A stretch of 64,000 nt of DNA from a bacterium. GTDB taxonomy: Bacteria; RBG-13-61-14; DATKZS01. The DNA is taken from contig CAXXFL010000006.1 of NCBI GenBank assembly GCA_963674965.2, positions 704,001-768,000 of the forward strand. Direction: 5' to 3'. The position numbers and the translations under genes were made by a program. Numbering within the stretch: the stretch's first letter is position 1; each line of letters opens with the position of its first letter. Below the pieces are notes generated by a model. It was given only the letters and a program-made list of their open reading frames with translations, was not told where the DNA came from and did not search any database. Positions 29,195-47,600 of this stretch are shown piece by piece.

Positions 29195-29299
29195 GCGCCG
29201 ATGGGAGTTACACGCGAGTGGGGAAAGAAAGCCGGTGAGAAATAATTTAACGAAGGTTTCCCAACTAAAAGACTAATTGAAGGGGTAAAGGAAATGCCG

Positions 29300-29355
29300 G
29301 AGGTCCATTTCTCCAGGAAAGATTTCGGCGACTCCTTCGTAACTCGTGGCCGCGA
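29300..29355 (+). ncRNA. orphan fragment of an IS110/IS1111 bridge-RNA-like sequence
   Basis: TTTCGGCGACTCCTTCGTAACTCGTGGCCGCGA differs at two positions from TTTCGGCGACTCCTTGGTAACCCGTGGCCGCGA at about 38953-38985. Confidence 0.6.
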
Positions 29356-29940
29356 CCCATTATCGAACCGAACCGTGTACGTCCCCGCGTCCAGCGCCCC
29401 CGCCGCGGACAGCTTGAGAGTGTCGCCCTCCTCGAGCTCGTCGGCCCAGGTGTCGCCGTCGCCCAGGCTGATCTCGCCGAGGGCGCTCTCGGCCAGGAGC
29501 CGGAGCCGCGCCGCGTCGAACTCGGGCGTCGCCGAGTCGCCTTCGCCGGGACCGCAGAGCACGGTGTCGCCGCTCATGACGGTAGTCACGCCGTCGCAGA
29601 GGCCGTCGCCGTCGGTATCGGGACTCAGTGGATTGGTGTAGAAGTAGCCCGAGTTCAGGTACTCCTCGAGGTTGGTCCTCCCGTCGCCGTCGGGGTCATC
29701 GGCCGCGTCGTCCACCAGCGGGTCCAGCCCGGCGATGACCTCCCAATAATCGTCGATCCCGTCCCCATCCGAGTCGGCCAACCTCGGGTCCGTCCCCAGC
29801 CTCGCCTCGATAATCGCCGCCATCCCGTCCCCGTCATAATCCGCCACCGCCTCATCGCACTCCACCACCACCGGATCGAACCCAAGGCTATCGGCATACT
29901 CCACCTCCCACCCGTCCGTGAAGCCGTCAAAGTCAGAATC
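29353..29940 (-). pseudogene. orphan toxin cassette 6, truncated before the Rhs core
   Basis: Homologous to 45.8-46.4 kb of the giant gene; cut after VRFDNGS. Confidence 0.88.
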
Positions 29941-29989
29941 GGCGGAAAGAACAGAGGCAAGTTTTCAAAGAACGTAGTTAAATCTATAT

Positions 29990-30080
29990 CGACAACCAAA
30001 GCATAGGTCATCCCCGGGAAACGATTCTCTATGACCTGCTCGCTATGCTCGCCCATATAGCTGAGCTATATGGGTTACTT
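29990..30080 (-). repeat. structured intergenic repeat (attC/REP-like), intact copy
   Basis: Minus strand TAAC...GTTGTCG with hairpins CCCATATAGC/GCTATATGGG and AGGTCAT/ATGACCT. A second copy lies at about 37602-37684 plus 39267-39275. Confidence 0.65.
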
Positions 30081-30118
30081 ATATTTTAGCCCTTTTGTGG
30101 GTTTCCTGTTACAAAGCA

Positions 30119-30856
30119 TTAATCCTCGTGCTCGGGATACAGCAGTGCTCTCAGTTTATTTTGAATTTCCCTCTCTTCTCCCTCGCTTGACGTGAAAGGA
30201 CGGTCATAGGCTTTGACGAACACTACTCCAGAAGCTTCCACTCTGGTTTCCAGCCAACTAGCGTTAAGCACGTCTTCTTTCTTCTTGCCCGTAATCTCCC
30301 AATATTTATCGCCAAACCACATTACCGAACCCACTTCCTCGAGATATCTGTCGCGAAACGTTCTCCTTCCCGGATTCTGAGACGTGTCTATAATCATCTT
30401 GTCTAATGGGTATGGGAGCCCGTTATGTTTCATGGGCAGATGGTCATAACTGCGGCCAGCGCTATCGTACTGCAACGGGTCATGCGCGTTCTGCCAATAT
30501 TCATAGTTTTCATCATAAACTCTTGCCTGGATAAAAGAATCGAAATCAAGAAAAGGCGCGATCCAGCCATATGATTGCCCAATCTCCTTTATACACTTTT
30601 CGATAAATACGAGAGAAAGGTTTTTATTACCTACATGGCCGTATTCTACTTTGATATTATCAAACTCGATGCCAAAGTGCTGGAGATTTCTTCTTTGGAT
30701 AGACTTCATAATATTCGATAGCTTTATTCTATTCCCATTAATATTGCCCCTTTCGTCAGGATCAATAATGTCCTTATGCGATTCAATAAGCGTTTTCCAA
30801 ATGGCCGTGGGTTTATAAAGCATATAAGGTAATACAATTTCAGCAGATAAATCCAT
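30119..30856 (-). CDS. putative immunity protein (cassette 5), family unrecognised
   Basis: AT-rich ORF starting immediately after the toxin stop codon. Confidence 0.75.
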   Translation of the reverse strand: MDLSAEIVLPYMLYKPTAIWKTLIESHKDIIDPDERGNINGNRIKLSNIMKSIQRRNLQHFGIEFDNIKVEYGHVGNKNLSLVFIEKCIKEIGQSYGWIAPFLDFDSFIQARVYDENYEYWQNAHDPLQYDSAGRSYDHLPMKHNGLPYPLDKMIIDTSQNPGRRTFRDRYLEEVGSVMWFGDKYWEITGKKKEDVLNASWLETRVEASGVVFVKAYDRPFTSSEGEEREIQNKLRALLYPEHED

Positions 30857-32650
30857 TTAAGGGTACTCCTTTATATTGACATGGACATTGTATTTTTCTC
30901 CAAATTTAACCAAATAATCCGCATCGGATGATCCCCCCGGTTGTACTCTTAAATCCAATATCATATTGGCTGGATTATCGTTAACCGACCCTCTTCCAGA
31001 ACCTAGCTGTCTAATATGGCCTTCCATTCCACTCTTCCAGCCTGATCCAGTTGTATCGACAGATTTAACGCTGACAAGATTATTCCCTTTCTGGAAGTCC
31101 ACTAATGGGAAAGTGCCGCCGCCTTCTTTGCCTATATGGTGCCAATCACTATAATCCGTCTTGGCAAGAGCCTCCTCAATTTCTTTTCCACGCTGCAATG
31201 GGTCTTTGCTCCATACTCCTTTGGCCTTTTTGGCTATATCAACTGCCTCATCAGCATGACTTGCAACGTCGTCACCATACCTTGTGACACCGGAAATGAA
31301 AAGTCCAGCTTTTCTTACACCCGCGCCAGACGCGGCAGCTATTCCAACGCAACTCGTCGCCCGCCAGTACCATTGGAGTTCCGTAACATTTATTGCATCG
31401 TAGCCGCTGGTGCATTCGAATACATCGCGCACATCGTTGACACCCGGGACAAACGCCGTTGACAAGTCTGCAAACGTCTTTAATTCTTTTACAACTTCCT
31501 TGACGGAAACGGTCCCGCCAGATAGACTGCTATTCTCAGCCCACTGAGTATATCCAGGGCCGCCATATTGCATCCCATTCGAGTCCTGAAAGGTTATTGG
31601 ATTATTATGAGCGTACTCGTATTGATTAATAAGTCCTGGTATCGGGTCCGTACTAACGAACCTTCCTAAATCCGGGTCATACCAGCGAGCGCCCAGCTTA
31701 TAAAGGCCGACGTCATTATCTTGTCGGCGGCCGACGAAGCCGTGGGTGATGGAGGAGTTGGCGATGGTGAGGGGGTGGGAGGGCGAGCCGGCGAAGTCGG
31801 CGCCGAAGGGGAGATAGGCGCGGCGCCAGACGGTCTCGCCGTCGGAGTTGGTGGCGACCACCGGGGAGTGGAGACCGTAGTGGAGGTAGAGCCGCCGGGA
31901 GATATTGACCGAGGCGGCGCCCGAGTCGAGGAGGCTCGAGCCCGAGTCGTCCACCACGTCAATATCGAAATTTCCCGAGGCCTCGTCCCCGAGGTCGCCC
32001 GTGTCCACAAATATATAAGTCGCGCCCTCGGACACGGCCACCTCGATGGCGTAAACCGAGCCCGACCCATTATCGAAGCGCACCGTGTACGTCCCCGCGT
32101 CCAGCGCCCCCGCCACGGCCAGCTTGAGGGTGTCGCCCTCCTCGAGCTCGTCCGCCCAGGTGTCGCCGTCCCCGAGGGTCAGCTCGCCGATGGCGCTCTC
32201 GGCCAGGAGCCTAAGCCGCGCCGCGTCCAGCTCGGGCGTCGCCGAGTCTCCCTCCCCCGGCCCGCAAAGCTGGGTCGCTCCGTCCATGACGGAGGTCACG
32301 CCGTCGCACAGCCCGTCGCCGTCGGTGTCCGGATTGAATGGGTTGGTATAGAAATACCCCGAGTTCAGGTACTCCTCGAGGTTGGTCCTCCCGTCCCCGT
32401 CGGGGTCCTCGGCCGCGTCGCCCACCAGCGGGTCCAGCCCGGCCACGACCTCCCAATAATCGTCGATCCCGTCCCCATCCGAGTCGGCCAACAGCGGGTT
32501 GGTCCCCAGCCTCGCCTCGATAATGGCCGCCATCCCGTCCCCGTCATAATCCGCCACCGCCGTATCGCACTCCACCACCACCGGATCGAACCCCAAGCTA
32601 TCCGCGTACTCCACCTCCCACCCGTCCGTGAAGCCGTCAAAGTCGGAATC
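30857..32650 (-). CDS. orphan cassette 5: conserved region, Rhs core and CdiA-EC869-like PD-(D/E)xK nuclease toxin (probably silent)
   Basis: NNPITFQDSNG cleavage motif; W....QRG..IE...FPLVDF...VSVKSVDT in the tip. Confidence 0.78.
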   Translation of the reverse strand, partial: DSDFDGFTDGWEVEYADSLGFDPVVVECDTAVADYDGDGMAAIIEARLGTNPLLADSDGDGIDDYWEVVAGLDPLVGDAAEDPDGDGRTNLEEYLNSGYFYTNPFNPDTDGDGLCDGVTSVMDGATQLCGPGEGDSATPELDAARLRLLAESAIGELTLGDGDTWADELEEGDTLKLAVAGALDAGTYTVRFDNGSGSVYAIEVAVSEGATYIFVDTGDLGDEASGNFDIDVVDDSGSSLLDSGAASVNISRRLYLHYGLHSPVVATNSDGETVWRRAYLPFGADFAGSPSHPLTIANSSITHGFVGRRQDNDVGLYKLGARWYDPDLGRFVSTDPIPGLINQYEYAHNNPITFQDSNGMQYGGPGYTQWAENSSLSGGTVSVKEVVKELKTFADLSTAFVPGVNDVRDVFECTSGYDAINVTELQWYWRATSCVGIAAASGAGVRKAGLFISGVTRYGDDVASHADEAVDIAKKAKGVWSKDPLQRGKEIEEALAKTDYSDWHHIGKEGGGTFPLVDFQKGNNLVSVKSVDTTGSGWKSGMEGHIRQLGSGRGSVNDNPANMILDLRVQPGGSSDADYLVKFGEKYNVHVNIKEYP

Positions 32651-32736
32651 GGCGGAAGTAATAATGACAAGTTTTCAAAGAGCGGAGTTACATCTATATC
32701 GACAACTAAAGTGTACAATGCCCGTCTTCGGGTTGC

Positions 32737-33303
32737 CTATTCACAGCCGATAACACTGGCCCTGTATTTATCAAGATATTTAACGTTTGCTTTCTCTAAA
32801 GCATCTTCAAGACATTCTATTCCATTTTTTATTTTATAGTCCACTTCATCTTTTGTAATTGGAATTAACCAATAAAAAGAAACGGCATCATTGTTATTCT
32901 TTAATATTTCAAAGCCTGGACCGTCAAGATAAGGCAATGAAATAAGGCCATATTCACAATTGGAATCAGGCAACCATCCTCTTCCAAAATTAACGGTATG
33001 CCATAGACCAAGACTACTATCAGTTGCGTGAAAATGTACTACTACGGTTAATAGCTCTACGAGGCCTTCATTTCTTTCTGGTGAGTGTATATGTAATTCG
33101 ATCTTTTCCCGATCTTGAAGTGTTGACATTCCACATGTTGCATATGTCCACATATCCCTTTTTATGGTTGGCCTAAACTCAAGGACGCTAAAAAATTGGG
33201 GCAGTTCATGAATTGGCCCTTTATTCCATTTTTTTATTGCTGCCGCATTATTCCAGTTGGTTTCGTAATGCTCTCTAATCAATTCTGTATTATGATATAT
33301 CAT
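32737..33303 (-). CDS. suppressor-of-fused (SUFU) domain immunity protein
   Basis: [15 protein letters not shown] and [10 protein letters not shown]....G...LE motifs; overlaps the toxin stop. Confidence 0.85.
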
Positions 33304-35060
33304 AGTCCATGCTCTTCTTTCTTTTTCTTTGAATAATTGCTCATTTTGCCACCCTGTATATTAGAATCCTTCCTCTTTTGTGTTTGCATCCTTCCTCTGT
33401 CGTTGGCACTTTCTTTCCTCTCAGATTCATTCATCTGATAGCCAGGCTTTTCATCATTCGATAGGTCGCCTTCATAATATCTTTGCACTAAGGGCGGGTC
33501 GTGGTCAACAACTTCATCTGGCTCGGCCCCTAATTCTCTTCTATCACTCTGCTTAGGAGTATTTCCATAATGCTTTCGCCTGTTATATGCCTCAGTTGGC
33601 CCGTCACTTTCGTCAGTTTTTTCATCTACGCCTGGGCTTGGTTCAGGTGAAGGAGACTCGTAATTCGGGTCCACTGGCTCTGAAGGCGGAGCTATATCCT
33701 GGCTAGATTCACCAGCCGCATAAAGTTCAATGAGCAATTCAGCGGCGCCCACCAACGCGGATGAAACGCCAACCCCATAACCAAGCTGATAGCAAGCCCT
33801 CGTGGGGTCGCCTTCTTCTGGCATGTAATAAGTATAATACGCCAGATGTGCATTTTCCGTGGAACGCAATCTGCCGCCTGAAGCTTCATTAACGGCGTCC
33901 GCAGGGACCAGAAACAAAGCATGCGAATACGCGCCTAAACATTCACTATAACCTAAGGCGGCCTCCGCGACTTCTCCTTCCATTCCTGACGCGTCTTGGT
34001 ACACGAACGGGTTGTTATAAGCGTAGGCGTACTGGTTGATGCCCCCGGCAACCGGATCGACGCTGACGAACCTCCCCAAATCCGGGTCGTACCAGCGGGC
34101 GCCGAGTTGATAGAGGCCGACGTCATTGTCGGAGCGGCGACCGACGAAGCCGTGGGTGATGGAGGAGTTGGTTATGGTGAGGGGGTGGGAGGGCGAGCCG
34201 GCGAAGTCGGAGCCGAAGGGGAGGTAGGCGCGGCGCCAGACGGTCTCGCCGTCGGAGTTGGTGGCGACCACCGGGGAGTGGAGACCGTAGTGGAGGTAGA
34301 GCCGCTGGGAGATATTGACCGAGGCGGCGCCCGAGTCGAGGAGGCTCGAGCCCGAGTCGTCCACCACGTCAATGTCGAAATTTCCCGAGGCGTCGTCCCC
34401 GAGGTCTCCCGTGTCCACAAATATATATGTCGCGCCCTCGGACACGTACGCCTCGATGGCGTAAACCGAGCCCGACCCATTATCGAACCGAACCGTGTAC
34501 GTCCCCGCGTCCAGCGCCCCCGCCACGGACAGCTTAAGAGTGTCGCCCTCCTCGAGCTCGTCGGACCAGGTGTCGCCGTCGCCGAGGGTCAGCTCGCCGA
34601 TGGCGCTCTCGGCCAGGAGCCGGAGCCGCGCCGCGTCCAGCTCGGGCGTCGCCGAGTCTCCCTCCCCCGGCCCGCAGAGCACGGTCTCACCGCTCATGAC
34701 TGAGGTCACGCCGTCGCACAGCCCGTCGCCGTCGGTATCGGGATTCAGGGGATTGGTGTAGAAGTAGCCCGAGTTCAGGTATTCCTCGAGGTTGGTCCTC
34801 CCGTCGCCGTCGGGGTCCTCCAAGGAGTCTCCCACCAGCGGGTCCAGCCCGGCGATGACCTCCCAATAATCGTCGATCCCGTCCCCATCCGAGTCGGCCA
34901 ACAGCGGGTCCGTCCCCAGCCTCGCCTCGATAATGGCCGCCATCCCGTCCCCGTCATAATCCGCCACCGCCTCATCGCACTCCACCACCACCGGATCGAA
35001 CCCCAGGCTATCCGCGTACTCCACCTCCCACCCGTCCGTGAAGCCGTCAAAGTCGGAATC
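33300..35060 (-). CDS. orphan cassette 4: conserved region, Rhs core and HNH-like nuclease toxin (probably silent)
   Basis: [11 protein letters not shown]; tip contains VDHDPPL...SNIQGG. Confidence 0.72.
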
Positions 35061-35131
35061 GGCGGAAGTAATAGAGGTTAGTTTTCAAAGAACGGAATTA
35101 CATGCTACGTGTATTGCAAGATACTCCTAAC

Positions 35132-35755
35132 CTACGAAACATTTATAAATATTATATTAGTATATTTTCTAGCTTCGATATATTCTTTAACTTTTTCGGT
35201 ACAAAATATCCATCCAGGAAACTGCGCTATTCTGAATATATCATATGTTGTTGAGTAATTATGATCCAAAACCAAACCGCTTCTCTTTGGGATATAATAA
35301 CGATAACCACAGGTAGAACATGTCTTTTCTAATTTTACATTCGATTTGGCTTCATCCAAAGGAAACCAGGAGTCAACCCACAATTCGCTTAATGTAGGAC
35401 CTTCGTAAGGCAGATATATCCTTTTTTGGGTTCCTTCTCTTGTAGCCTTTGGCATCTTAAGGCGATTGTCTTGGAACATTTTAATTTCTTTAATATCAAA
35501 GCCGCTAAAATGCTTTTTAAGTTCAAGCGCAACGAATTGTTTGGACACCAACTCGAAGCTAATTCCACTCCAAATAAAGTCGCCTATTAAATCCGAACCC
35601 GGTTCCCATTCTATTATTAAAGGAGGTACTCTTATTTGACTCGATCTTGTACATTCAGGACATAGACCTTCACTTTTACTTGGCGTCCAAGTACCTCGTA
35701 TTCCAAATTGCGCATAATTATAGTCTCTTGGAGATAGCATCTGATAAAAAGACAT
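35132..35755 (-). CDS. double-CXXC(G)-like immunity protein
   Basis: CPECT and CSTCG motifs, DIFR...IFCTEK; GAGG RBS; follows the toxin. Confidence 0.7.
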   Translation of the reverse strand: MSFYQMLSPRDYNYAQFGIRGTWTPSKSEGLCPECTRSSQIRVPPLIIEWEPGSDLIGDFIWSGISFELVSKQFVALELKKHFSGFDIKEIKMFQDNRLKMPKATREGTQKRIYLPYEGPTLSELWVDSWFPLDEAKSNVKLEKTCSTCGYRYYIPKRSGLVLDHNYSTTYDIFRIAQFPGWIFCTEKVKEYIEARKYTNIIFINVS

Positions 35756-35767
35756 TTTTTCACCTCA

Positions 35768-37552
35768 CTAATCATCAACGTATTGTATTCCTAATTCCTT
35801 GTTCACTTCTTCTCTAATCCTTAATACATCATCCGCAGTAGGTGTGCGTCCTAGGTCTTCAATTTTTTGTTTTGTTAATTCATTTACAAGACCACCACCT
35901 TTGCCTTTATGTATTCGATTATGCTCATCAATATCAATCTTCCTTCTATTGGGAAAACCTGGTTTTCCTCTTACGTTAGGATTGTTAGCAACGTCAGACG
36001 GTAAATGCTTATCCAATACCTCTTTCGGGGTCTGGTGATGCATATGCGTGCCTTTTGACACACCTTTACTCGCGTCGAGAATCTCATCAGCCGCGTCCAC
36101 CGCGTTAAAGAGCTTTTTATTATTCCTCGACATTATATAATAAAACATGGCGCAATCGTCCAATGGTATTGGAGTCGATTCCGCCGTGGCCATGCCATGA
36201 GCCGCGATATCGTCCATGGGCAAGCCTATTTTTTCACCCGCAGCGTCAACGGCCATTCCCGGCCCAGTTATTGGTATGGTTGCTACTTGGAAAGAAGTGT
36301 CAGTGCCTTGTCTAAATTCTTCCATTCCTTTATCGGATATTGGATCGGCCCCTAATAATTCACCTCCGGCATCAACGCCCTCAATTGTTCCCCTTGCGAT
36401 TATAACCGACAACCCTCCTACGGCGCCAGCGATGACAAAGCCCTGAACCACTGGGCCAATCCAGACCGGGATATTGCCATCCGCGTCCTGGAAAACGAAA
36501 GGGTTGTTATGGCTATATGCGTACTGATTAAGAAGTCCCGGAACGGGGTCTCTACTCACGAACCTCCCCAGGTCCGGGTCGTACCAGCGGGCGCCGAGTT
36601 GGTAGAGGCCGACGTCATTGTCGGAGCGGCGGCCTACGAAGCCGTGGGTGATGGAGGAGTTGGTTATGGTGAGGGGGTGGGAGGGCGAGCCGGCGAAGTC
36701 GGAGCCGAAGGGGAGGTAGGCGCGGCGCCAGACGGTCTCGCCGTCGGAGTTGGTGGCGACCACCGGGGAGTGGAGACCGTAGTGGAGGTAGAGCCGCTGG
36801 GAGATATTGACCGAGGCGGCGCCCGAGTCGAGGAGGCTCGAGCCCGAGTCGTCCACCACGTCAATGTCGAAATTTCCCGAGGCGTCGTCCCCGAGGTCTC
36901 CCGTGTCTATAAAAATATAAGTCGCGCCCTCGGACACGGCCACCTCGATGGCGTAAACCGAGCCCGACCCATTATCGAAGCGCACCGTGTACGTCCCCGC
37001 GTCCAGCGCCTTCGCCACGGACAGCTTGAGAGTGTCGCCCTCCTCGAGCTCGTCGGACCAGGTGTCGCCGTCGCCGAGGGTCAGCTCGCCGATGGCGCTC
37101 TCGGCCAGGAGCCGTAGCCGCGCCGCGTCCAGCTCGGGCGTCGCCGAGTCGCCCTCCCCCGGCCCGCAAAGCTGGGTCGCTCCGTCCATGACGGAGGTCA
37201 CGCCGTCGCACAGCCCGTCGCCGTCGGTGTCCGGATTGAATGGGTTGGTATAGAAATACCCCGAGTTCAGGTACTCCTCGAGGTTGGTCCTCCCGTCCCC
37301 GTCGGGGTCCTCGGCCGCGTCGCCCACCAGCGGGTCCAGCCCGGCCACGACCTCCCAATAATCGTCGATCCCGTCCCCATCCGAGTCGGCCAACAGCGGG
37401 TTGGTCCCCAGCCTCGCCTCGATAATGGCCGCCATCCCGTCCCCGTCGAAATCCGCCACCGCCGTATCGCACTCCACCACCACCGGATCGAACCCAAGGC
37501 TATCCGCGTACTCCACCTCCCACCCGTCCGTGAAGCCGTCAAAGTCGGAATC
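35768..37552 (-). CDS. orphan cassette 3: conserved region, Rhs core and DUF2380/AHH-like HNH toxin (probably silent)
   Basis: NNPFVFQDADG; tip has MHHQTP...EHNRIH..GGG..N. Confidence 0.72.
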   Translation of the reverse strand, partial: DSDFDGFTDGWEVEYADSLGFDPVVVECDTAVADFDGDGMAAIIEARLGTNPLLADSDGDGIDDYWEVVAGLDPLVGDAAEDPDGDGRTNLEEYLNSGYFYTNPFNPDTDGDGLCDGVTSVMDGATQLCGPGEGDSATPELDAARLRLLAESAIGELTLGDGDTWSDELEEGDTLKLSVAKALDAGTYTVRFDNGSGSVYAIEVAVSEGATYIFIDTGDLGDDASGNFDIDVVDDSGSSLLDSGAASVNISQRLYLHYGLHSPVVATNSDGETVWRRAYLPFGSDFAGSPSHPLTITNSSITHGFVGRRSDNDVGLYQLGARWYDPDLGRFVSRDPVPGLLNQYAYSHNNPFVFQDADGNIPVWIGPVVQGFVIAGAVGGLSVIIARGTIEGVDAGGELLGADPISDKGMEEFRQGTDTSFQVATIPITGPGMAVDAAGEKIGLPMDDIAAHGMATAESTPIPLDDCAMFYYIMSRNNKKLFNAVDAADEILDASKGVSKGTHMHHQTPKEVLDKHLPSDVANNPNVRGKPGFPNRRKIDIDEHNRIHKGKGGGLVNELTKQKIEDLGRTPTADDVLRIREEVNKELGIQYVDD

Positions 37553-37786
37553 GGCGGAAGTAATAATGACAAGTTTTCAAAGAACGTAGTTACATCATTA
37601 TCGACAACCTAAGCAGAGGTCATCCTTTGGAAACGATTCTCTATGACCTGCTCGCTATGCTCGCCCACATAGCGGAGCTATGTGTAAACATGAAAGCGGG
37701 CTGTCCTCCAAGACGGTTTGAGGTATAACCGTAAACCAAGGGGTTGCAATGCAGGGCCCCAAATAAATGAAGGGAGGTACAGCCCA

Positions 37787-38872
37787 ATGACAACTTATCT
37801 CGGATTGGACGTGCATTCAAGGAGGACGGTGTTCGTGGCCCAGGAGGAGGACGGAAAAATAATCGCCCGGGGGGACGTGGCTACCGACCGCGCCGGCTTC
37901 GAGGAACTTCTCGGCCGGCTCGGAGGCGAGCTCGGGATCAAGACCGGCCTGGAGAGCGGGGCCCAGTCCTTTTGGGTCAGCGAGCAACTCTCCGAGCTGG
38001 GGTTTCACCCTTACGTGATCAACGCCGCCGAAGTGCGGGCCAAGTCGCTCCGCCCCAACCAGAAGAGCGACGGCCGCGACGCCCTCGAGATTTGCGACGG
38101 TCTGCGCCGCGATCTTTACGTCAGCCGCGTCTACGTGCCCGGCCGGTCCGTTCGCCGCCTGCGGTCCCTGCTCGGCCGCCGCCGTTTTTTCATCCGCCAA
38201 ATGACGTCCCAGGTCAACTCGGCCAAGGCCCTTTTGCGGGGCGAGGGAGTTCGAGTGTCTTTCCGCCTGAACACCGCCTCAGGCTGGAAGCGGGCGCTGG
38301 AGTCCTGCCCGGACTCCTTCCAGCGCGACCTTTTGCGGATGCACTTTCGGACCTGGCGTCAGGTCTCGGAGGAAGTCGCTCGCTTGAACAAGAAAATCGA
38401 AAAGGAGGCGGGCGCCCATTTCGCCGATGCTTATCCCCTGCTCCAGACCGTCCCCGGCGTGGGTCCGGTGACGGCGGCGACCTTTCTTTCCGTTATCGCC
38501 GACGCCGGGCGGTTCGAGCGGAGCGGCCAGGCGGTAAGCTACCTTGGACTCTGTCCGTCCAGTTGGGACAGCGGCGACCGGGTGGTCCACGGCCGTATCA
38601 CCAAGCGCGGGTCCTCGGAGGCCCGCTCGATGCTGGTGGAGGCGGCCCATCACGCGGGCCGTCCCACTCACCCCCTCAACCCGTATTTCGCCCGGGTGGC
38701 GGCGAGGCAGGGTTACAAGAAGGCGGTGGTCTGCGTGGCCCAGCGGCTTTGCCGCGTCATGTGGAGAATGATGTTGGACGGCGAGGAATTCGACGCGGGC
38801 AAGCTCAACGTGACGCCCACGAGCAAGGTCAAGACGAGGAAGTATTACTGGAAGATCAAGGAGGCCGTTTGA
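37787..38872 (+). CDS. IS110 family DEDD recombinase/transposase
   Basis: GLDVH, LESG, KSDGRDA, TVPGVG, SYLGLCP..SG, ITKRG; GGAGG RBS. Confidence 0.95.
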   Translation: MTTYLGLDVHSRRTVFVAQEEDGKIIARGDVATDRAGFEELLGRLGGELGIKTGLESGAQSFWVSEQLSELGFHPYVINAAEVRAKSLRPNQKSDGRDALEICDGLRRDLYVSRVYVPGRSVRRLRSLLGRRRFFIRQMTSQVNSAKALLRGEGVRVSFRLNTASGWKRALESCPDSFQRDLLRMHFRTWRQVSEEVARLNKKIEKEAGAHFADAYPLLQTVPGVGPVTAATFLSVIADAGRFERSGQAVSYLGLCPSSWDSGDRVVHGRITKRGSSEARSMLVEAAHHAGRPTHPLNPYFARVAARQGYKKAVVCVAQRLCRVMWRMMLDGEEFDAGKLNVTPTSKVKTRKYYWKIKEAV

Positions 38873-38914
38873 CTCGTTGAGGTCGCGTCCGTGACTTGGC
38901 CGGCTTGAGGGCGG

Positions 38915-39095
38915 GCCAGGAGGCGCGAGAATCCGTGTCACTCCAAAATAGTTTTCGGCGACTCCTTGGTAACCCGTGGCCGCGAAGGCCTTCTATGTGT
39001 ATGGAGCAACGCCGGGACACCGAACGTATTCGTGAGGCTTACGACCTCTTGACCTCGAATAGATGGTTGGAGGGAGGCACGGACCGGGGGGCGCT
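38915..39095 (+). ncRNA. predicted bridge RNA/seekRNA of the IS1111 element (boundaries approximate)
   Basis: Loop segments GGTAACCCG (38968-76) and CTATGTG (38993-99) match the insertion target; ATAGATG (39059-65) matches the circle junction. Confidence 0.78.
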
Positions 39096-39294
39096 TTTTC
39101 ATCTTTCCGTCATGGGATTGACCCGAAACAATCCCGCCCTCCGTCCCTCGCCCGCTCGGTCCTCCGGTCATGATTCTTTCGGGTAAAGGAGGGTAGACGG
39201 AAAGAAGAAAAAGCTTTGGCAACTGGAGGATGAGACCGTCCAGGGTTGACAATTTGCTTTCATAGATGGGTTACCTGTTGTTATGAGTAACACG

Positions 39295-39909
39295 TCACTT
39301 GTTACTTTTCATTATTTTATCTATATATATTTCTGCGGTTATACCAGATGGTTTCCCTTTAGTTCCAAAGCGCAATTCTTCAATAATCTGTTCCAACTTT
39401 TCAGTTGGGCCAATTTCATTTAGCAGAACCATTAGGTGCATCAATCTTTGAAACTTCGTTAAGCCTGGAGATCTACCCGAAATCCATAGATCTCTTAATG
39501 CGCTGTTACTGGAATATTTTTGCAGCTCTGGAATAATATAATGCCCAGTGCTTGTAAGAATTTCCTCATCGAGACCGGCAAGGTTTGAATTGTCATTGAT
39601 TGTCCACCATGTATCCTTAGGCTGGGGCAATATATGTCCTATACGTTGACGAAAGTGACAATCTTCAATCTTTGGACGTTTAATTGGTTCATTATAAAAT
39701 TGAAAGAGTATTTGTGATGATATCCCAATATTAATCGTAAATATGACTTCATGCTTAGTACTTTTTGTGCTTTTTTGAAAGTTAATGAGTCTCCATATAT
39801 CATCTTTAAAAAGCAAGTAAGTATTGCCATAACGTTTATAACCATGTGCCGATAATAATGGCTTGATCTGCCCCCTCACTAATCTGTTAAATTCAGATGA
39901 AGCTTCCAT
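39295..39909 (-). CDS. DUF4304-like putative immunity protein
   Basis: IKPLL...GYKR.G, INFQKS, FTINIGI, RQRIG motifs; GGAG RBS. Confidence 0.75.
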   Translation of the reverse strand: MEASSEFNRLVRGQIKPLLSAHGYKRYGNTYLLFKDDIWRLINFQKSTKSTKHEVIFTINIGISSQILFQFYNEPIKRPKIEDCHFRQRIGHILPQPKDTWWTINDNSNLAGLDEEILTSTGHYIIPELQKYSSNSALRDLWISGRSPGLTKFQRLMHLMVLLNEIGPTEKLEQIIEELRFGTKGKPSGITAEIYIDKIMKSNK

Positions 39910-40137
39910 TTTGATAAATCTCCTTAATAAGGGTCTATACCTACAATTTATTGACCATTCCTTGCTTTGAATACCACGTCGATTATTTACTTATTATAAG
40001 ATATCGGAAAAATCTTATCGAAAGCTTTGTCATTTTATTCAGGTAACTATTTAAAATTAATGCCGACTAGTAATGATTGCCTCGCAATAACTATTACGCA
40101 AATATTATATTCAATATTATTGAAATTTCGTAACACT

Positions 40138-41877
40138 CTAATTGTCCCGCACGATATTGACAATATATTCTTTAAAAATATCAAGCCATTTATCTTTTGC
40201 TCTCTGCGAAGGTTTATAAGGTGAATTTCCCGTTTTAGTCTCAATTCCACCCAGTACCTCACCGTCTTTGCTGACCTCAATGTCTATACGACGTTTTCCA
40301 AACCAAGTTTTTTTCGTCACCTCTTTTTCGACTTCATACCCATTTTTCTCAATTAATTCAGCTATCTCGTCACGAAAAGCGTCTCCTTTTGCTTTATTTT
40401 TTGATAATTGAGAAGCTTTAGATGATCTCCCCGCATTTGCGGCTGCCATTTCCTCACCGGCGACAGCTTTGGCCCCAAGGCCCATAGCCCCTAGTTCAGC
40501 TATACTGCCAAAAAGCTGAATGTCGTTTTTACACGCGAAGCTCCCGCCGATTCCATAAGCCCAATACTCAGCTGACCCTTGTTCTGATGCCTCGGCCATG
40601 GCCCACCAATCCTCATGGGCGGTACCGGTGAAAAAGTCATGAGTATCTTCCCATGCCAAGATTTCCGACTCCGTGCCCTCTATGTAATACATTGCGGTAT
40701 CAAGTCCCGGCACCTTTACAACCTCATTGATTTTTATCCATGGGCTGAGGGCTTGTTTGACGACTCCGGTGGTAAATTGTTCGAAAAACAAACCGGAAGC
40801 ATCATGATAAACGAACGGATTGTTATTGGCGTAAGAGTACTGGTTCAGAAGGCCAGACACCGGGTCTGTGCTCACGAACCTCCCCAGGTCCGGGTCGTAC
40901 CACCTTGCTCCCAACTGGTAGAGGCCGACGTCGTTGTCTTGTCGGCGGCCGACGAAGCCGTGGGTGATGGAGGAGTTGGCGATGGTGAGGGGGTGGGAGG
41001 GCGAGCCGGCGAAGTCGGCGCCGAAGGGGAGGTAGGCGCGGCGCCAGACGGTCTCGCCGTCGGAGTTGGTGGCGACCACCGGGGAGTGGAGCCCGTAGTG
41101 GAGGTAGAGGCGCTGGGAGATATTGACCGAGGCGGCGCCCGAGTCGAGGAGGCTCGAGCCCGAGTCGTCAACCACGTCAATGTCGTATGAGCCGGAGCCG
41201 GCGTCGTCCCCGAGGTCTCCCGTGTCTATAAATATATAAGTCGCGCCCTCGGACACGGCCACCTCGATGGCGTAAACCGAGCCCGACCCATTATCGAACC
41301 GAACCGTGTACGTCCCCGCGTCCAGCGCCCCCGCCACGGACAGCTTGAGAGTGTCGCCCTCCTCGAGCTCGTCGGACCAGGTGTCGCCGTCGCCGAGGGT
41401 CAACTCGCCGATGGCGCTCTCGGCCAGGAGCCGAAGCCGCGCCGCGTCCAGCTCGGGCGTCGCCGAGTCGCCCTCCCCCGGCCCGCAGAGCACGGTCTCG
41501 CCGCTCATGGCGGAGGTCACGCCGTCGCACAGCCCGTCGCCGTCGGTATCGGGATTCAGGGGATTGGTGTAGAAGTAGCCCGAGTTCTGGTATTCCTCGA
41601 GATTGGTCCTGCCGTCCCCGTCGGGGTCCTCCAAGGAGTCTCCCACCAGCGGGTCCAGCCCGGCGATGACCTCCCAATAATCGTCGATCCCGTCCCCATC
41701 CGAGTCGGCCAACAGCGGGTTGGTCCCCAGCCTCGCCTCGATAATGGCCGCCATCCCGTCGCCGTCATAATCCGCCACCGCCTCATTGCAATTTACCACC
41801 TCCGGGTCGAAGCCAAGGGTGTTGGAGTACTCGACCTCCCACCCGTCCGTGAAGCCGTCAAAGTCGGAATCGATGGA
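40138..41877 (-). CDS. orphan cassette 2: conserved region, Rhs core and PD-(D/E)xK nuclease toxin (probably silent)
   Basis: [11 protein letters not shown]; tip GKRRIDI...IETKTG...SQRAKD. Confidence 0.78.
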
Positions 41878-41932
41878 AAGAACAGAGGCAAGTTTTCAAA
41901 GATCAAATGATCGCGAGCTTTTAATCTAAGGC

Positions 41933-42598
41933 CTACAAATATTTAATCCCTTTATGTCCTATCGCGCTTCCTTCCTCAACGGGTGTGAAACGAAAGTTGG
42001 TTAGCTTGTACTTTTTCGCGCAATCTATAAGAGCATCCGTACAAAAGAACTTAAGATACGATAAATTGGTAGTGAAAAGGTTTTTACCGTCCCAACTGTC
42101 AGGCTTGAATATATAAGGGCATATTTTTGAGTGCTGCAATGTATATGTTTTAGTAATATCGTACAACAATCGTCCACAGCTTTCACAATAGCGAGCATCA
42201 AGAAATCCACTGGCGAGTAAGTCAAGCTCGGCGCCACAGAGTTTTTCTCCATCCACCCAATAGTACTTTGGAGGCTTTGTCCCCTCAAGCTTTTTTGGAT
42301 AAGGCTTTTGGAGTTTAACCCTGTGAAGGGGGATTTCTCCAATGTTTTCTTTCGACCATGCTGCGACGACTTTTTCTGAGATAATTAATAACATTTGGCT
42401 TCCGCAACCTAAAACATCAGCCCACTTGGTACCCTTATCCGGCTCAAAAATAACGGAGATATCACCTGAAGGATAGAATCTCCGGCCTCCGCATTTTTCG
42501 CAGGGGGGCAACATGGTAATTCCTTTCGTTATTTCCGATATCCAGGGGAAGCCTCTTGTATCAAAGGAGTTATCTGAAATGGAGTAAAATTTAATCAT
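41933..42598 (-). CDS. double-CXXCG-like immunity protein
   Basis: CEKCG and CESCG motifs, WDG..LF...FCTD; follows the toxin. Confidence 0.72.
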   Translation of the reverse strand: MIKFYSISDNSFDTRGFPWISEITKGITMLPPCEKCGGRRFYPSGDISVIFEPDKGTKWADVLGCGSQMLLIISEKVVAAWSKENIGEIPLHRVKLQKPYPKKLEGTKPPKYYWVDGEKLCGAELDLLASGFLDARYCESCGRLLYDITKTYTLQHSKICPYIFKPDSWDGKNLFTTNLSYLKFFCTDALIDCAKKYKLTNFRFTPVEEGSAIGHKGIKYL

Positions 42599-42606
42599 AA
42601 CGGTGC

Positions 42607-43932
42607 CTACTGAAAATTTGGATTATTTCTTAAATTATGCATGAAATTTAATACTTCTTTATCAGAAGCTGTTGGGTTACTATCGAAGAATTTTCTCCAT
42701 TCTTTGTTAAAGTCTCTGCTCCATTTTAGATGGTTATTATCTCCTTCTACCCATCGGCCATATTGCGCCTCGTTTATATCATTAATGCCTAATTTATTAA
42801 ATCTATCTTCAAATTCCACCGGCAAGTCATGGTGGGCATGTGGCTTTTTTAAATGTGAGGGCGGGTCACCTAAGTTTTTACGTAGAATTTTTCTTGCCTT
42901 TGTCCCCCTGGCCTTGTTTGCGGCTCTTGCCGCCTTCGCCGCCTTGCTTGTTTTACTAGCCGCGCCACTTAATGCTTTCCCTGATTTGCCAATGCTCTTC
43001 GGGCCGCCGGTCGCGCTGAGCGCAATGTTGGCCGCTAACTCCGAGCCGATTAACGCTTGCTCGTCAGGATCGCTTGCCAGGAAGGCATTATACTGGTTTA
43101 CTGCCCCGTAGTACAACACCTCGGGCTCATCAAGATATAAATAAGCCCCATAACCAATAGTCTCACCCGTGCCATACAGGGTATCGACTGGATGCCGGGC
43201 CATGGTATAGACGCCTTCACCCGTCGAGTAAAACGTCCTTAGCACTCCATGAGCTCCGGCGCTGATACAAGCGGTGGTCTCATTCGAGTTTACCGCGTCC
43301 GCGTACGTCCAAAGAGCGCCGTATATTCCGCTCACGAACTCCGACTCCCGGCCGTCTCCGTCATAATATCGGAATGGATTATTGTTCGCGTAGGCGTACT
43401 GGTTGATGCCCCCGGCAACTGGATCGACGCTGACGAACCTTCCCAGGTCGGGGTCGTACCAGCGGGCGCCGAGTTGGTAGAGGCCGACGTCGTTGTCGGA
43501 GCGGCGGCCTACGAAGCCGTGGGTGATGGAGGAGTTGGCGATGGTGAGGGGGTGGGAGGGCGAGCCGGCGAAGTCGGCGCCGAAGGGGAGGTAGGCGCGG
43601 CGCCAGACGGTCTCGCCGTCGGAGTTGGTGGCGACCACCGGGGAGTGGAGACCATAGTGGAGGTAGAGGCGCTGGGAGATATTGACCGAGGCGGCGCCCG
43701 AGTCGAGGAGGCTCGAGCCCGAGTCGTCAACCACGTCAATGTCGTATGAGCCGGAGCCGGCGTCGTCCCCGAGGTCGCCCGTGTCCACAAAAATATAAGT
43801 CGCGCCCTCGGACACGGCCACCTCGATGGCGTAAACCGCGCCCGACCCATTATCGAAGCGCACCGTGTACGTCCCCGCGTCCAGCGCCCCCGCAACGGCC
43901 AGCTTGAGAGTGTCGCCCTCCTCGAGCTCGTC
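42607..43932 (-). CDS. orphan cassette 1 (shorter homology arm): Rhs core and DUF2380/AHH-like HNH toxin (probably silent)
   Basis: NNPFRYYDGDG; tip AHHDLP..F...GI...H..W...FN.EW..FF..NP.A. Confidence 0.78.
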   Translation of the reverse strand, partial: DELEEGDTLKLAVAGALDAGTYTVRFDNGSGAVYAIEVAVSEGATYIFVDTGDLGDDAGSGSYDIDVVDDSGSSLLDSGAASVNISQRLYLHYGLHSPVVATNSDGETVWRRAYLPFGADFAGSPSHPLTIANSSITHGFVGRRSDNDVGLYQLGARWYDPDLGRFVSVDPVAGGINQYAYANNNPFRYYDGDGRESEFVSGIYGALWTYADAVNSNETTACISAGAHGVLRTFYSTGEGVYTMARHPVDTLYGTGETIGYGAYLYLDEPEVLYYGAVNQYNAFLASDPDEQALIGSELAANIALSATGGPKSIGKSGKALSGAASKTSKAAKAARAANKARGTKARKILRKNLGDPPSHLKKPHAHHDLPVEFEDRFNKLGINDINEAQYGRWVEGDNNHLKWSRDFNKEWRKFFDSNPTASDKEVLNFMHNLRNNPNFQ

Positions 43933-44155
43933 ATCTTGGGTGGCCCACTCTTTCGGAACGAATGAGTGGGTGAGCGGAGCGGACGGGCTTAGCGCCTCGA
44001 GGCATGTTGAAGCTTTCGGCTCCAACTACATGCAGCTAAATCTCAAATTGAATTTTCAAAGAACCGTGCGTAGCTTATATATACCTGTCTCGCGTTGCGA
44101 GAGCCACACGGAAGCATGCTATACCGTATGGCCAACCCGCCGCACTCGCTAAATA

Positions 44156-44593
44156 TCACATTGTTTCATCATCAATTATCGTGAAAACATCCTTTGCTTT
44201 TCCATCTGGGCAACCATATATGTAACACCATGATATATCATTATCAGAATACTCTTCATCATCTCCATCAATAACTTCAGGGTATTCAAAAGCGACACAA
44301 ATAGTGTATATATCATTGTTTTTTGGAGAAATTACCGGGATTAATTCACCTTCGTTATCATAAGAGATTGCATCGGGGTACTGATCTGTATCGTAAAGGA
44401 CAATTTCTTGATTGCATTTATTACATGAAGCGACCACTAATGGTCGGTTATTCTTTTTAACGGAAAAATAATTATTCTTGCAGATACATTTGACTTGATA
44501 AGCAACAAAGTACTCATTTGTCGGTACAGGAAGTATTGAAGCAAAACAACCTATTGGTGTAACGAAGCCCTTTAAATGATCTGGACATCTCAT
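44156..44593 (-). CDS. Cys-rich putative cognate immunity protein of the full-length toxin
   Basis: AT-rich ORF about 22 nt after the toxin stop, AAGGA RBS, CIC and CNKC motifs. Confidence 0.72.
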   Translation of the reverse strand: MRCPDHLKGFVTPIGCFASILPVPTNEYFVAYQVKCICKNNYFSVKKNNRPLVVASCNKCNQEIVLYDTDQYPDAISYDNEGELIPVISPKNNDIYTICVAFEYPEVIDGDDEEYSDNDISWCYIYGCPDGKAKDVFTIIDDETM

Positions 44594-44615: not shown

Positions 44616-47600
44616 TTAATATTCTAACATCAATGAGTTTATTGCGTTTGGATCCGCTTCATTCATTCTTTTCCAATTTTGTAATTCTCTATTCAATTCA
44701 CTTACATTGTCAAGTTTATAATTAGAGATATAGTTGGTATTATAACGATTTCCTTCCAATGTGTATGCAGCATCGGGATGAACCCTCTTGCCATTAAGTG
44801 CATTCACTTTATTTCCGGCGGCATCAAATTGACGCTTGTTTTTATTAATGTTCGTAGCTCCTTTCGATTCTGCCCAGTTTAATTCATTTTCGATCGCATT
44901 ATTATGTTTTACGTTGCCAGGACCATGTTCTTTGCCCCATTTTGTGCCACTTACAGAGGATTTATCCGCCGCTTTTACCGCGTCATCGCCAACTTCCTCC
45001 GCGGCCTCCAATACGGCCTTGCCCGCGCCCTCGGCCGCGTCGTCGGCCGACCCTTTTAATAATCCTTTTACTCCGTTTATTGATCCCTTGACTCCATTAT
45101 AAAACCCTCGAGGGTTTTTTGCGATCTTATAGCCGGTGGCGGTAAAACTTAAGCCGGCGCAAACGTCCCCTGGGATATTGACGACGTCCCAAGCATCTCG
45201 TATTCCATTGTAAGCGTCATCAGCCGCTGCTTCAGAAGGAATCGCTCCAACTCCATCCAGACCTCCTACTATAGCGAGAGGAACTCCAACTCCAATACCG
45301 CCGGCGGCGTAAATTATCAAAGCCGCCATTGCCATAGGATCGCGACCATCGCCGTCCTGATAGACGAATGGATTATTATTCGCGTATGCGTATTGATTGA
45401 GATCCTGGAAAACCGGATCGGTGCTCACGAACCGCCCCAGGTCCGGGTCGTACCAGCGGGCGCCGAGTTGGTAGAGGCCGACGTCGTTGTCGGAGCGGCG
45501 GCCGACGAAGCCGTGGGTGATGGAGGAGTTGGCGATGGTGAGGGGGTGGGAGGGCGAGCCGGAGAAGTCGGCGCCGAAGGGGAGATAGGCGCGGCGCCAG
45601 ACGGTCTCGCCGTCGGAGTTGGTGGCGACCACCGGGGAGTGGAGCCCGTAATGGAGGTAGAGCCGCTGGGAGATATTGACCGAGGCGGCGCCCGAGTCGA
45701 GGAGGCTCGAGCCCGAGTCGTCAACCACGTCAATGTCGTATGAGCCGGAGCCGGCGTCGTCCCCGAGGTCGCCCGTGTCTATAAAAATATAAGTCGCGCC
45801 CTCGGACACGGCCACCTCGATGGCGTAAACCGCGCCCGACCCATTATCGAACCGCACCGTGTACGTCCCCGCGTCCAGCGCCCCCGCCACGGACAGCTTG
45901 AGAGTGTCGCCCTCCTCGAGCTCGTCGGACCAGGTATCGCCGTCGCCGAGGGTCAGCTCGCCGATGGCGCTCTCGGCCAGGAGCCGTAGCCGCGCCGCGT
46001 CCAGCTCGGGCGTCGCCGAGTCGCCCTCCCCCGGCCCGCAAAGCTGGGTCGCTCCGTCCATGACGGAGGTCACGCCGTCGCACAGCCCGTCGCCGTCGGT
46101 GTCCGGATTGAATGGGTTGGTATAGAAATACCCCGAGTTCAGGTATTCCTCGAGATTGGTCCTCCCGTCCCCGTCGGGGTCATCGGCCGCGTCGTCCACC
46201 AGCGGGTCCAGCCCGGCGATGACCTCCCAATAATCGTCGATCCCGTCCCCATCCGAGTCGGCCAACAGCGGGTTGGTCCCCAGCCTCGCCTCGATAATGG
46301 CCGCCATCCCGTCCCCGTCATAATCCGCCACCGCCGTATCGCACTCCACCACCACCGGATCGAACCCAAGGCTATCCGCGTACTCCACCTCCCACCCGTC
46401 CGTGAAGCCGTCAAAGTCGGAATCAATGGAGACGGGGTTGGCTTGGGATTGGCAGTAGGCATAATTCAACGGTTCGCTAACAGTAACGTCTGGATCGCAC
46501 TCATCAACGTTCACGATACCGTCAGAATCCGTATCGACCGTTCCTCCATCAGCGTCGGATATTGGGTTAAGGCCGTGTTCATACTCCCACTTGTCAGGCA
46601 TGTCGTCCAAGTCGCTGTCGCCCGTATATGGGCAGGAATCCAGAACGTAATATTCCATGCCGTCGGGGAGACCGTCGTCGTCGCTGTCAGATAAGGTTGG
46701 AATTACAATAATGCCCTCATACATTTGAGCGTCAACTTCTTCCGAATCGAGCATGTAATCCTCATCAGTGTCGGGATTGTATGGAGACGAGAGAAAAACA
46801 ATTATTTCAGTTTGATTGGAAATTCCGTCGCCATCGGGGTCATCGTTATTGTCCACCACCAATGGATCAGTCCCGTATTCCACCTCAATTCCGTCTCGTA
46901 AGCCATCGCCGTCAGTGTCGGGATTTTCCAGTCCATTTGGAATAGTGCCCATCTGATATTCAGTAAGGTTCCATAAGCCGTCGCCATCGGCGTCGGAGTC
47001 CCAGTCCGTGGAGTCGTCCGGGTCAAAACTATATTGGACCTCCCACCAGTCAGGCATGCCGTCCATGTCGGAGTCGACCATGTCTGGCCTTGTGTTATAT
47101 ATATCGTGTTCGTCAATATTGCATAACCCGTCCTGGTCGAGGTCCGGACAACCGGCGCCGCCGGCGCCGTCGGCGGCATTATTGGGGTCGAGTCCGAATA
47201 ATGCCTCGTAGTCGTCATCCATGCCGTCGCCGTCGGTGTCGGCCAAGCTCAGTGAGGACCCCGCGTACATTTCCTCGATTACCATGAGGGTGGAGCCGAA
47301 TAATTCGCCCACGTCCAATTTCGAGTAGAACACGTAATAATTATCCGACGGGTCCTTTTCCACCCAGGCCACGTGCAGGTATTCCTTGTCGGGGCTGGGC
47401 TTGATCCTGGCCAGGACGGCGTCGTTAGCGGGGTTGGATATAAGTATGGGAGGTCTCCAGTGGGTCGAGTTGGTAGGCGCGTCCTTATAATAATCGTTCC
47501 TTACCATTTCGTTCGAGTAAAGGATTACCGATTTGGTCTGGCCCGAGCCCACGGGCGTCTCGACCACGGACTTCCATACCGCGTGTTTCCTCTCCCCGCT

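Follow-up and report, generated by a model that had tools for sequence, protein, structure and literature searches.

Copies of an rRNA-operon boxA precede the orphan toxin cassettes of an RHS-like locus and may protect their transcripts from Rho

In polymorphic toxin loci, Rhs and CDI among them, it is a practical puzzle how orphan cassettes without promoter or start codon keep their immunity genes expressed, and we describe here a locus in which a boxA element ahead of each cassette offers a concrete and testable answer. The locus lies within a window of 64,000 nt (the whole stretch of DNA analysed) in a genome, G000, that is one of a sample of 13 from its phylum. On balance we lean, from comparison of sequences, toward reading the cassette motif as a functional copy of the boxA in the organism's own rRNA operon, probably serving as a Nus-dependent anti-Rho element; a known signal would then probably have found a new use at toxin cassettes.

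The architecture is that of the Rhs and CdiA orphan toxin-immunity arrays, which are explained by a C-terminal displacement model: behind a full-length gene come 3' fragments that lack promoter and start codon and have a homology arm in common with the gene, and each fragment here has a different tip and immunity gene. The toxin, immunity and junction features described below are all on the minus strand. The full-length toxin gene (44616..54383, 3255 aa) encodes TSP3_bac repeats, an RHS-core-like end (...NQYAYANNNP) and a toxin tip; in its translation the RHS-core motif precedes the variable tip and its tblastn relatives are RHS proteins, and Pfam matches only TSP3_bac in it, RHS_repeat being matched in an upstream 1505-aa gene. 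Behind it lies a 145-aa ORF with no Pfam match that is the candidate cognate immunity gene (44156..44593), followed by six orphan cassettes, each preceded by a boxA-like 13-mer. The first copy (GTTCTTTGAAAAT, 44052..44064) sits in a junction module of the kind that we term type B (43935..44160; two adjoining hairpins, boxA and two further hairpins), ahead of a 472-aa open frame (cassette 1, 42607..44025) whose homology to the main gene is limited to 43346-43932, and of an immunity candidate with a weak Imm11 match under the Pfam cut-off (41933..42598). The other five copies belong to type A. Copy 2 (GATCTTTGAAAAC, 41892..41904), where likeness to the other type-A copies begins at the motif, precedes cassette 2 (40138..41877), an arm of about 1.08 kb with a distinct tip; copy 3 (GTTCTTTGAAAAC, 37573..37585) precedes cassette 3 (35768..37552) and an immunity candidate (35132..35755) whose Imm11 match, at 22.6 bits, just passes the cut-off of 22.1; copy 4 (GTTCTTTGAAAAC, in another upstream context, 35081..35093) precedes cassette 4 (33300..35060) and a candidate of the SUFU family (1e-14; 32737..33303). 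Copy 5 (GCTCTTTGAAAAC, 32671..32683) is followed by cassette 5 (30857..32650), which has a weak PT-TG pre-toxin match, and by a 245-aa immunity candidate with no Pfam match (30119..30856), and copy 6 (GTTCTTTGAAAAC, 29961..29973) by a truncated cassette 6 (29182..29940; arm 29353-29940), past which is a terminator-like hairpin with a T-run (29044..29062). A REP/MITE-like palindromic repeat (30031..30078) forms the upstream part of the type-A1 junctions; the same palindrome is also dispersed in a relative, G001. A search of Rfam with positions 27000-56000 gave no family at E ≤1, and four further loci likewise yielded no relevant match.

The original prediction placed six boxA-like 13-mers on this strand, and all six were recovered: with up to one mismatch the window has exactly six matches, all on the minus strand (GTTCTTTGAAAAC or variants of it), where 0.05 are expected by chance, and six copies were reached in none of 100 shuffles. 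Its placement of five copies 20 nt ahead of the arm agrees with the arm starts located by BLAST (29940, 32650, 35060, 37552 and 41877). All six copies contain a TGA that lies in the reading frame of the arm, and between this TGA and the arm the five type-A copies contain no ATG, GTG or TTG.

The nearest relative of the motif is in the host's own rRNA operon. In rrn operons boxA loads the Nus antitermination complex, consisting of NusB-S10, NusA, NusG, SuhB and S4. The sole rrn operon of this genome (16S at C1:908699-910260, minus strand) has a leader in which a consensus promoter (TTGACA-17-TAAACT) is followed by a GAAA-loop hairpin and then by GCTCTTTGAAAAC, at -116 to -104 relative to the 16S gene, and the 16S-23S spacer holds more boxA-like copies, GCTCTTTGAAATC and, ahead of the 23S gene, GTTCTTTGACAAT. 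The claimed resemblance to rrn boxA is borne out: window copy 32671 is identical to the leader boxA at 13/13 positions and the other window copies are one base off. Cassette copies either equal the leader boxA or differ from it at position 2 or 13, and the motif varies at positions 2, 10 and 13 only, which are also variable among the organism's own rrn copies. By simple arithmetic, the chance that a random 13-mer falls within one mismatch of the host boxA is of the order of 1e-6. Both Rho and NusB are encoded by the genome, with profile scores (702 and 143.8 bits) that exceed the cut-offs. The GATC variant of the motif also agrees with the rrn consensus of B. subtilis, AUGAUCUUUGAAA, as quoted in PMC13753749.

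Across the 6.5 Mb genome there are 28 matches with up to one mismatch: one in the rrn leader, 13 at type-A junctions, eight at type-B junctions, five in copies of one transposase gene in which the motif encodes QFFENG, and one in another coding sequence, so that 22 of the 28 are at the rrn leader or at junctions and six are chance matches in coding DNA. The motif is rare, and all 21 junction copies are on the sense strand, the one expected to be transcribed, which upholds the original prediction as to both frequency and strand. BLAST detects 20 orphan arms that are 79-97% identical to the main gene, with tips that differ, and the motif is ahead of every one of them (20/20) on the sense strand; Imm11, SUFU and DUF4304 ORFs come after the orphan tips. 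None of the three full-length toxin genes has the motif, and in the full-length gene of the window there is no boxA at the position homologous to the arm start (46429-46460).

The junction at 44052 had been singled out as unrelated to the other five. It is indeed unlike them, and local alignment of the 100-nt stretches flanking the motif in 20 A-B pairs gave no score above those of shuffled controls (the score of the best pair was reached by 19 of 300 shuffles), although it is not an isolated case but belongs to a repeated type-B family with eight modules in the genome, whose conservation reaches roughly 85 nt ahead of the motif and 110 nt beyond it. As a second repeated junction family, it counts as one independent comparison. 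Compensatory changes are seen in just two of the 58 predicted pairs of the type-B hairpins, and this structure is descriptive only. In the genome at least five different upstream contexts have the motif as their 5'-most common element. The 13 type-A copies differ from one another, as a pairwise mean, by 0.35 over the 10 nt ahead of the motif, by 0.06 within it (at position 2 alone), by 0.23 across the 20-nt linker and by 0.03 within the arm. The type-A motif is a conserved island amid variable flanks. The motif is repeated up to ten times within a single array, and because most copies are recent duplicates there are few independent observations, namely the two junction families in this genome and three relatives. 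The observed basis for a boxA is identity with the rrn leader, rarity, strand, position and conservation relative to the flanks, together with the fact that the genome encodes Rho and NusB.

We propose that boxA, once transcribed at the 5' end of an orphan cassette, would recruit NusB-S10, which together with NusG and NusA would convert RNA polymerase to a Rho-resistant complex. Each orphan has a homology arm of 0.6-1.1 kb and a toxin tip, and because neither has a start codon its RNA would be unshielded by ribosomes; boxA could let transcription traverse the untranslated arm and tip and reach the immunity gene beyond. The signal may either reload a single long transcript or head transcripts from local promoters, and the array would be read through with Nus factors bound where Rho would otherwise stop transcription. 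When the sense RNA of the arms is cut into 78-nt windows, C exceeds G by at least 10% in roughly 20-25% of them for most arms and in 6% for the truncated last one, and Rho loading sites are therefore plausible. There are no terminator-like sites between cassette units on the minus strand; apart from the hairpin past cassette 6, the minus-strand matches fall within arms, tips or ORFs. The immunity candidates are 28-145 nt upstream of the next boxA and have no consistent promoter-like site of their own, and a sigma-70-like scan found no consistent site upstream of the motifs. Two candidates picked out by eye, a weak ATGACC-17-TATAGA 9 nt ahead of the type-A1 motif and TATAAG 9 nt ahead of the type-B motif, were not adopted as promoters because they are missing from the remaining junction contexts, and TTGAAA within the motif was ruled out as a -35 element, there being no -10 at 16-18 nt (by eye).

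The cassette boxA is like that of rrn in having the same sequence as the host leader and the same orientation to the expected transcription, in what would be untranslated RNA, and often a hairpin lies upstream as in the rrn leader. What follows it, however, is not stable RNA but orphan toxin fragments with their immunity genes, and the cassette copies showed no conserved partner of the boxB or boxC kind. Lambda nut (boxA-boxB) and RfaH/ops are comparable as processive antitermination signals inside operons prone to Rho-dependent polarity, although the motif here matches rrn boxA and not ops, and no N-like or RfaH-like factor is implied. Uniform arm 5' ends that are tied to the motif set this locus apart from the known Rhs and CdiA orphan arrays, and in E. 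coli K-12 the orphan regions of rhsA and rhsD have no boxA at up to two mismatches. In CRISPR leaders, boxA shields untranslated pre-crRNA from Rho (cited in PMC13753749), and we propose the same logic here, with boxA guarding against Rho where a defence or conflict locus has a long region without translation; the differences are that a CRISPR array has one leader boxA whereas here there is one per cassette, and that in relatives of this bacterium boxA is inside the coding sequence of the full-length gene. The literature that we searched contained nothing linking boxA or antitermination to Rhs/CdiA-type orphans.

The expectation that the motif would mark orphan cassettes at other toxin loci holds in part. 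In G007, whose rrn leader boxA is GTTCTTTGAAAAC, six of the nine exact matches to GYTCTTTGAMAAY are at RHS cassette starts, and in G003 and G010 the motif is likewise associated with RHS cassette starts. It does not hold for other RHS-like loci of G000 with different arm families (no boxA at up to two mismatches before downstream cassettes), for the loci examined in G009 and G010:C494 (none at up to one mismatch) or for E. coli K-12, and because of these absences we do not regard the boxA device as general. As for relatives of the arm itself, a search of genome contigs gave only five distant RHS matches, and an arm-alignment search of metagenomes confirmed none of 211 candidate stretches.

In the full-length genes of G007 and G010 the motif is translated, as E-F-F-E/D-N, and may there be kept for the protein. 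Since in relatives it is partly coding, and always at a cassette boundary, there is room for a boundary or recombination role, and the motif could be a cassette-boundary signal or relic: a recombination site, a microhomology, or the remnant of an ancestral arm that opened with coding ELTKE-FFEN, as seen in relatives, with the boxA likeness a by-product of GAG TTC TTT GAA AAY. This would fit G007, whose 2481-aa main gene has the motif in its reading frame and in which three orphans at two separate loci (o1, o2 and b2) start about 15 nt upstream of the motif, and would fit the motif being the 5'-most element common to at least five upstream contexts in G000; uniform placement at the cassette edge is equally expected of a recombination signal, and coding FFEN or FFDN yields the 13-mer by chance in the transposase, in an apparent rpoB of G010 (GVFFDN) and at other coding sites. 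However, a non-coding remnant should decay like its flanks, yet the motif is an island of conservation, and one that is common to two junction families with otherwise unrelated flanks. In the relatives, all eight copies have the same third base in each of the F, F and N codons (TTC or CTC, TTT, AAT), against synonymous variation in five of the six codons that follow in the five LKQAKK copies. The three full-length genes of G000 lack the site, and thus the motif cannot mediate exchange with them. A site-specific recombination site (attC-like or invertase) was rejected on dyad symmetry, which as read from the sequence extends to 3 bp only (TTT-G-AAA), and on nearby recombinases, the 29 ORFs of 150 aa or more in the flanks including a DDE (rve) transposase (27031-28044) and no tyrosine or serine recombinase. 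The integron core site has the consensus GTTRRRY, with which GTTCTTT is incompatible, and an integron-like core is ruled out. A boundary signal or relic would also leave unexplained the 13/13 identity with the rrn leader and the spacer boxA variants, and we consider it unlikely.

It is also conceivable that boxA acts in the opposite direction, with NusB-S10 promoting Rho termination or blocking translation, which would silence the toxin fragments and insulate the cassettes. There is precedent in the boxA-dependent enhancement of Rho termination documented at hisG and suhB (PMC12360218), and the motif heads a stretch that is not meant for protein and bears an in-frame stop. Untranslated arms, however, should be Rho targets unaided, the downstream immunity genes, with no consistent promoter-like site, would be shut off too, and the nearest match is the copy in the rrn leader, an element known for antitermination, so that silencing seems quite improbable. 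That the motif is a functionless hitch-hiker, present by chance at one ancestral junction and amplified with the cassettes, might suit the 79-97% identity of the arms, the flanks common to most type-A copies and the three of five loci in arrays able to grow by tandem duplication, but is very unlikely given two junction families with unrelated flanks, several type-A upstream contexts, conservation relative to the non-coding stretches on both sides, the same association in three other genomes and the rarity (of order 1e-6) of a random boxA match within one mismatch.

Returning to boxA as an antitermination signal, we suggest tentatively, as one possibility, that in this small phylum it is a dual-use signal built into the RHS toxin system, encoded in some lineages within the full-length gene as E-F-F-E/D-N, right where the arms begin, so that displaced tips would carry an exposed antitermination signal at their untranslated 5' end; in G000 it would have become a free-standing non-coding module, and the orphan arrays may be kept as transcribed immunity reservoirs via hijacked rRNA antitermination. 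If the antitermination reading is true, loci of interbacterial conflict would join rRNA, CRISPR arrays and a few mRNAs among the targets of Nus-factor antitermination, and transcribed orphan arrays could be recognised in uncultured bacteria by boxA as a simple marker in the sequence. The coding copies in the relatives would then be a rare instance of a short sequence constrained as both protein and RNA signal.

The window, C6:704001-768000 of the genome, holds an Rhs-type polymorphic-toxin locus that includes an array of orphan cassettes. The main gene (44616-54383, minus strand) encodes a 3255-aa toxin with bacterial TSP3 repeats, and its translated 3' part has an RHS-core-like end followed by a variable tip. 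Downstream lie six start-less fragments, each repeating up to ~1.1 kb of that 3' part (the arm) and bearing its own distinct tip, with a small ORF next in most cases; several of these ORFs match immunity-type families (Imm11, SUFU, and DUF4304). A 1505-aa gene with RHS repeats lies immediately upstream of the main gene (55261-59775), so one gene may encode the RHS shell and another the tip-bearing protein. The upstream same-strand region (54410-63992, minus) holds a HEAT-repeat ORF, the 1505-aa protein, a 211-aa ORF, and a 1001-aa InhA-like MAM-domain protein, and an rve-type DDE transposase (27031-28044, plus) adjoins the array end.

A boxA-like 13-mer, GTTCTTTGAAAAC or a one-base variant, occurs exactly six times in the window at up to one mismatch, always on the minus strand, where 0.05 matches are expected by chance and none of 100 shuffles gives six; these are the six positions of the original prediction, with no others. 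All six copies contain a TGA in frame with the arm, and no ATG, GTG, or TTG lies between this TGA and the arm in the five copies of the first of two junction families (type A). The preceding ORF ends 28-145 nt before the motif in five copies. A scan revealed no consistent promoter-like site before the motifs, and no minus-strand terminator-like hairpin separates the cassette units; one lies past the last orphan (29062-29044, minus), and the remaining ones listed are within arms, tips, or ORFs. C-over-G stretches occupy about one fifth to one quarter of 78-nt windows in the sense RNA of most arms (6% in the truncated last arm), and the genome encodes both Rho and NusB.

The genome has one rrn operon (16S, C1:908699-910260; 23S, C1:905073-908127; both minus strand). 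Its leader contains TTGACA-17 nt-TAAACT, a GAAA-loop hairpin, and GCTCTTTGAAAAC, which ends 104 nt before the 16S gene, and in the 16S-23S spacer GCTCTTTGAAATC lies ahead of the tRNAs and GTTCTTTGACAAT ahead of the 23S gene; such sites are where boxA classically occurs. The host element and the cassette motif agree, the window copy at 32671 being identical to the leader element at 13/13 positions and the others differing by one base. The variant at 41892, GATCTTTGAAA, matches the B. subtilis rrn consensus AUGAUCUUUGAAA given in PMC13753749; that paper lists UGCUCUUUAACA for E. coli and describes a boxA-nucleated complex that shields rRNA and CRISPR transcripts from Rho. We also note that two orphan fragments with type-A junctions (C1:911781 and C1:912290, within C1:910800-912420, locus L114) adjoin this sole rrn operon upstream in the same orientation, followed by a terminator-like hairpin and then the rrn promoter.

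The motif is rare genome-wide, with 28 matches at up to one mismatch in 6.5 Mb, 21 of them at junctions: 13 of type A (motif, 20-nt linker, and arm beginning GATTCCGAC) and eight of type B. The others are the rrn leader, five copies of one transposase gene in which the motif encodes QFFENG, and the start of another gene. BLAST with the last 2.4 kb of the main gene identifies, besides the window gene, two further full-length genes (on C2 near 78 kb and on C6 near 883 kb). It also identifies 20 orphan arms: six in the window, ten on C2, one at C6:880 kb, two fragments that immediately precede the rrn operon, and one at C1:1.46 Mb. The motif precedes the arm on the sense strand in 20/20 orphans and is present in none of the three full-length genes. 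Types A and B are intermixed in arrays, and an arm is lacking at one type-B module (C5:413591). The transposase copies (C1:673708, C2:4512, C2:15178, C6:294525, and C6:477963) carry the exact 13-mer in coding sequence and differ from the rve-type transposase of the window. Elsewhere, a promoter-like TTGCAA...TAGTAT and a hairpin precede a further non-coding boxA-like site, GCTCTTTGAAAT (C1:384295, L111), with no Rfam match downstream. A seven-copy repeat family (C1:1078860, C2:323622, C3:165174, C3:316516, C5:227233, C6:6696, and C7:894282) has GCTCTTTGA[AC]AATCGAATACCGAGGG between 60-150 nt of conserved sequence and the tandem GC-rich hairpin units that follow (CGGTTTC-TTAC-GAAACCG); it matches no Rfam family at threshold, the weak Acido-Lenti-1 match scoring 26 bits against a gathering score of 37.

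The junction at 44052 had been described as unrelated to the others, and its flanks are indeed unlike type A, since comparison of the 100-nt flanks of the motif in 20 A-B pairs yields no similarity beyond shuffles; it is not a lone case, however, but one of the eight type-B modules. Its layout is two adjoining hairpins, ~25 nt, boxA, and two more hairpins, and arm homology restarts ~120 nt downstream at a point corresponding to window position 45926, within the main gene. Type-A copies have several upstream contexts, and in two copies similarity starts at the motif itself. The upstream part of the commonest context is a palindromic REP/MITE-like repeat, GTAACCCACATAGCT..GCTATGTGGGCGAGCG.AGCGAGCAGGTCAT (30031-30078), that is also scattered through the relative G001 (at least 19 matches, loci L003-L031, some of them inverted pairs); the genome under study has few copies, which make up the upstream half of most type-A junctions. 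Mean pairwise differences over the 13 type-A copies are 0.35 for the 10 nt that precede the motif, 0.06 within it (position 2 alone varies, as T, C, or A), 0.23 for the linker, and 0.03 for the arm. The motif thus stands out as conserved between non-coding flanks that vary, and it is not simply part of a duplicated block.

Similar arrangements recur within our 13-genome sample of the phylum. G007, of the same order, has GTTCTTTGAAAAC in its rrn leader 103 nt before the 16S gene, and its nine exact GYTCTTTGAMAAY matches comprise this leader, six RHS cassette starts, and two sites elsewhere in coding DNA; a seventh cassette copy, GTTCTTTGATAAT, fell outside the search pattern. The motif is in frame (...ELTKE-FFEN-LKQAKK...) in its 2481-aa main gene, which has SpvB, TcdB-midN, and RHS domains, and orphans o1, o2, and b2 at two loci start ~15 nt upstream of the motif, with the preceding GAG replaced by TAG in two of the three. 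In eight G007 and G010 copies the F/L, F, and N codons (TTC or CTC, TTT, AAT) are invariant at the third position, whereas synonymous changes affect five of the six codons that follow in the five copies with LKQAKK, a hint of constraint at the nucleotide level. Pattern matching located the core start in ten other RHS homologues, of 16 retrieved, and none of the ten contains ELTKEFFEN. At one G007 cassette start (L068, G007:C90, oriented ~216-241), a tandem duplication GTTCTTTAAAGA-GTTCTTTGACAAT (FFKEFFDN) places two boxA-like cores side by side. In G003, of the same family as our genome, two of three matches lead paralogous genes, one with RHS Pfam matches and one (on C201) without, and in one of the two a TAG closes the FFEN frame. 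Likely rrn leaders of G001, G009, and G010, at contig ends with 16S genes unassembled, read G[CT]TCTTTGAAAAC then TA[AG]ATAGCA, as in our genome.

The device is lineage-specific: boxA is missing before the cassettes of four other RHS-like loci of this genome with different arm families (up to two mismatches) and at the loci seen in G009 and in G010:C494 (up to one mismatch), and in E. coli K-12 nothing within two mismatches of GCTCTTTAACAA occurs in the orphan regions of rhsA and rhsD. We found no full-text report, most subscription journals lying outside the coverage, that joins boxA or antitermination with orphan toxins; the literature match for boxA with Rhs was unrelated, and those listed for polymorphic toxins with antitermination look unrelated from their titles and the start of their abstracts.

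A role for the motif as a boundary or recombination signal of the cassettes stays in contention, as it is strictly tied to cassette boundaries and has coding copies in relatives, although it has only 3-bp dyad symmetry, is missing from the full-length genes of this genome, and has no site-specific recombinase among the 29 flanking ORFs. A functional boxA is the best reading of the sequence, a probable one, and would account jointly for the rrn identity, the strand, the placement at the 5' edge of every untranslated unit, the conservation island, and the recurrence in relatives. We note that boxA can also stimulate Rho termination, as PMC12360218 describes for hisG and suhB. As a functional antitermination element, loaded anew along one long transcript or heading local ones, boxA would render RNA polymerase Rho-resistant across the untranslated arm and tip, and the Rho-resistant polymerase would then transcribe the next immunity gene.
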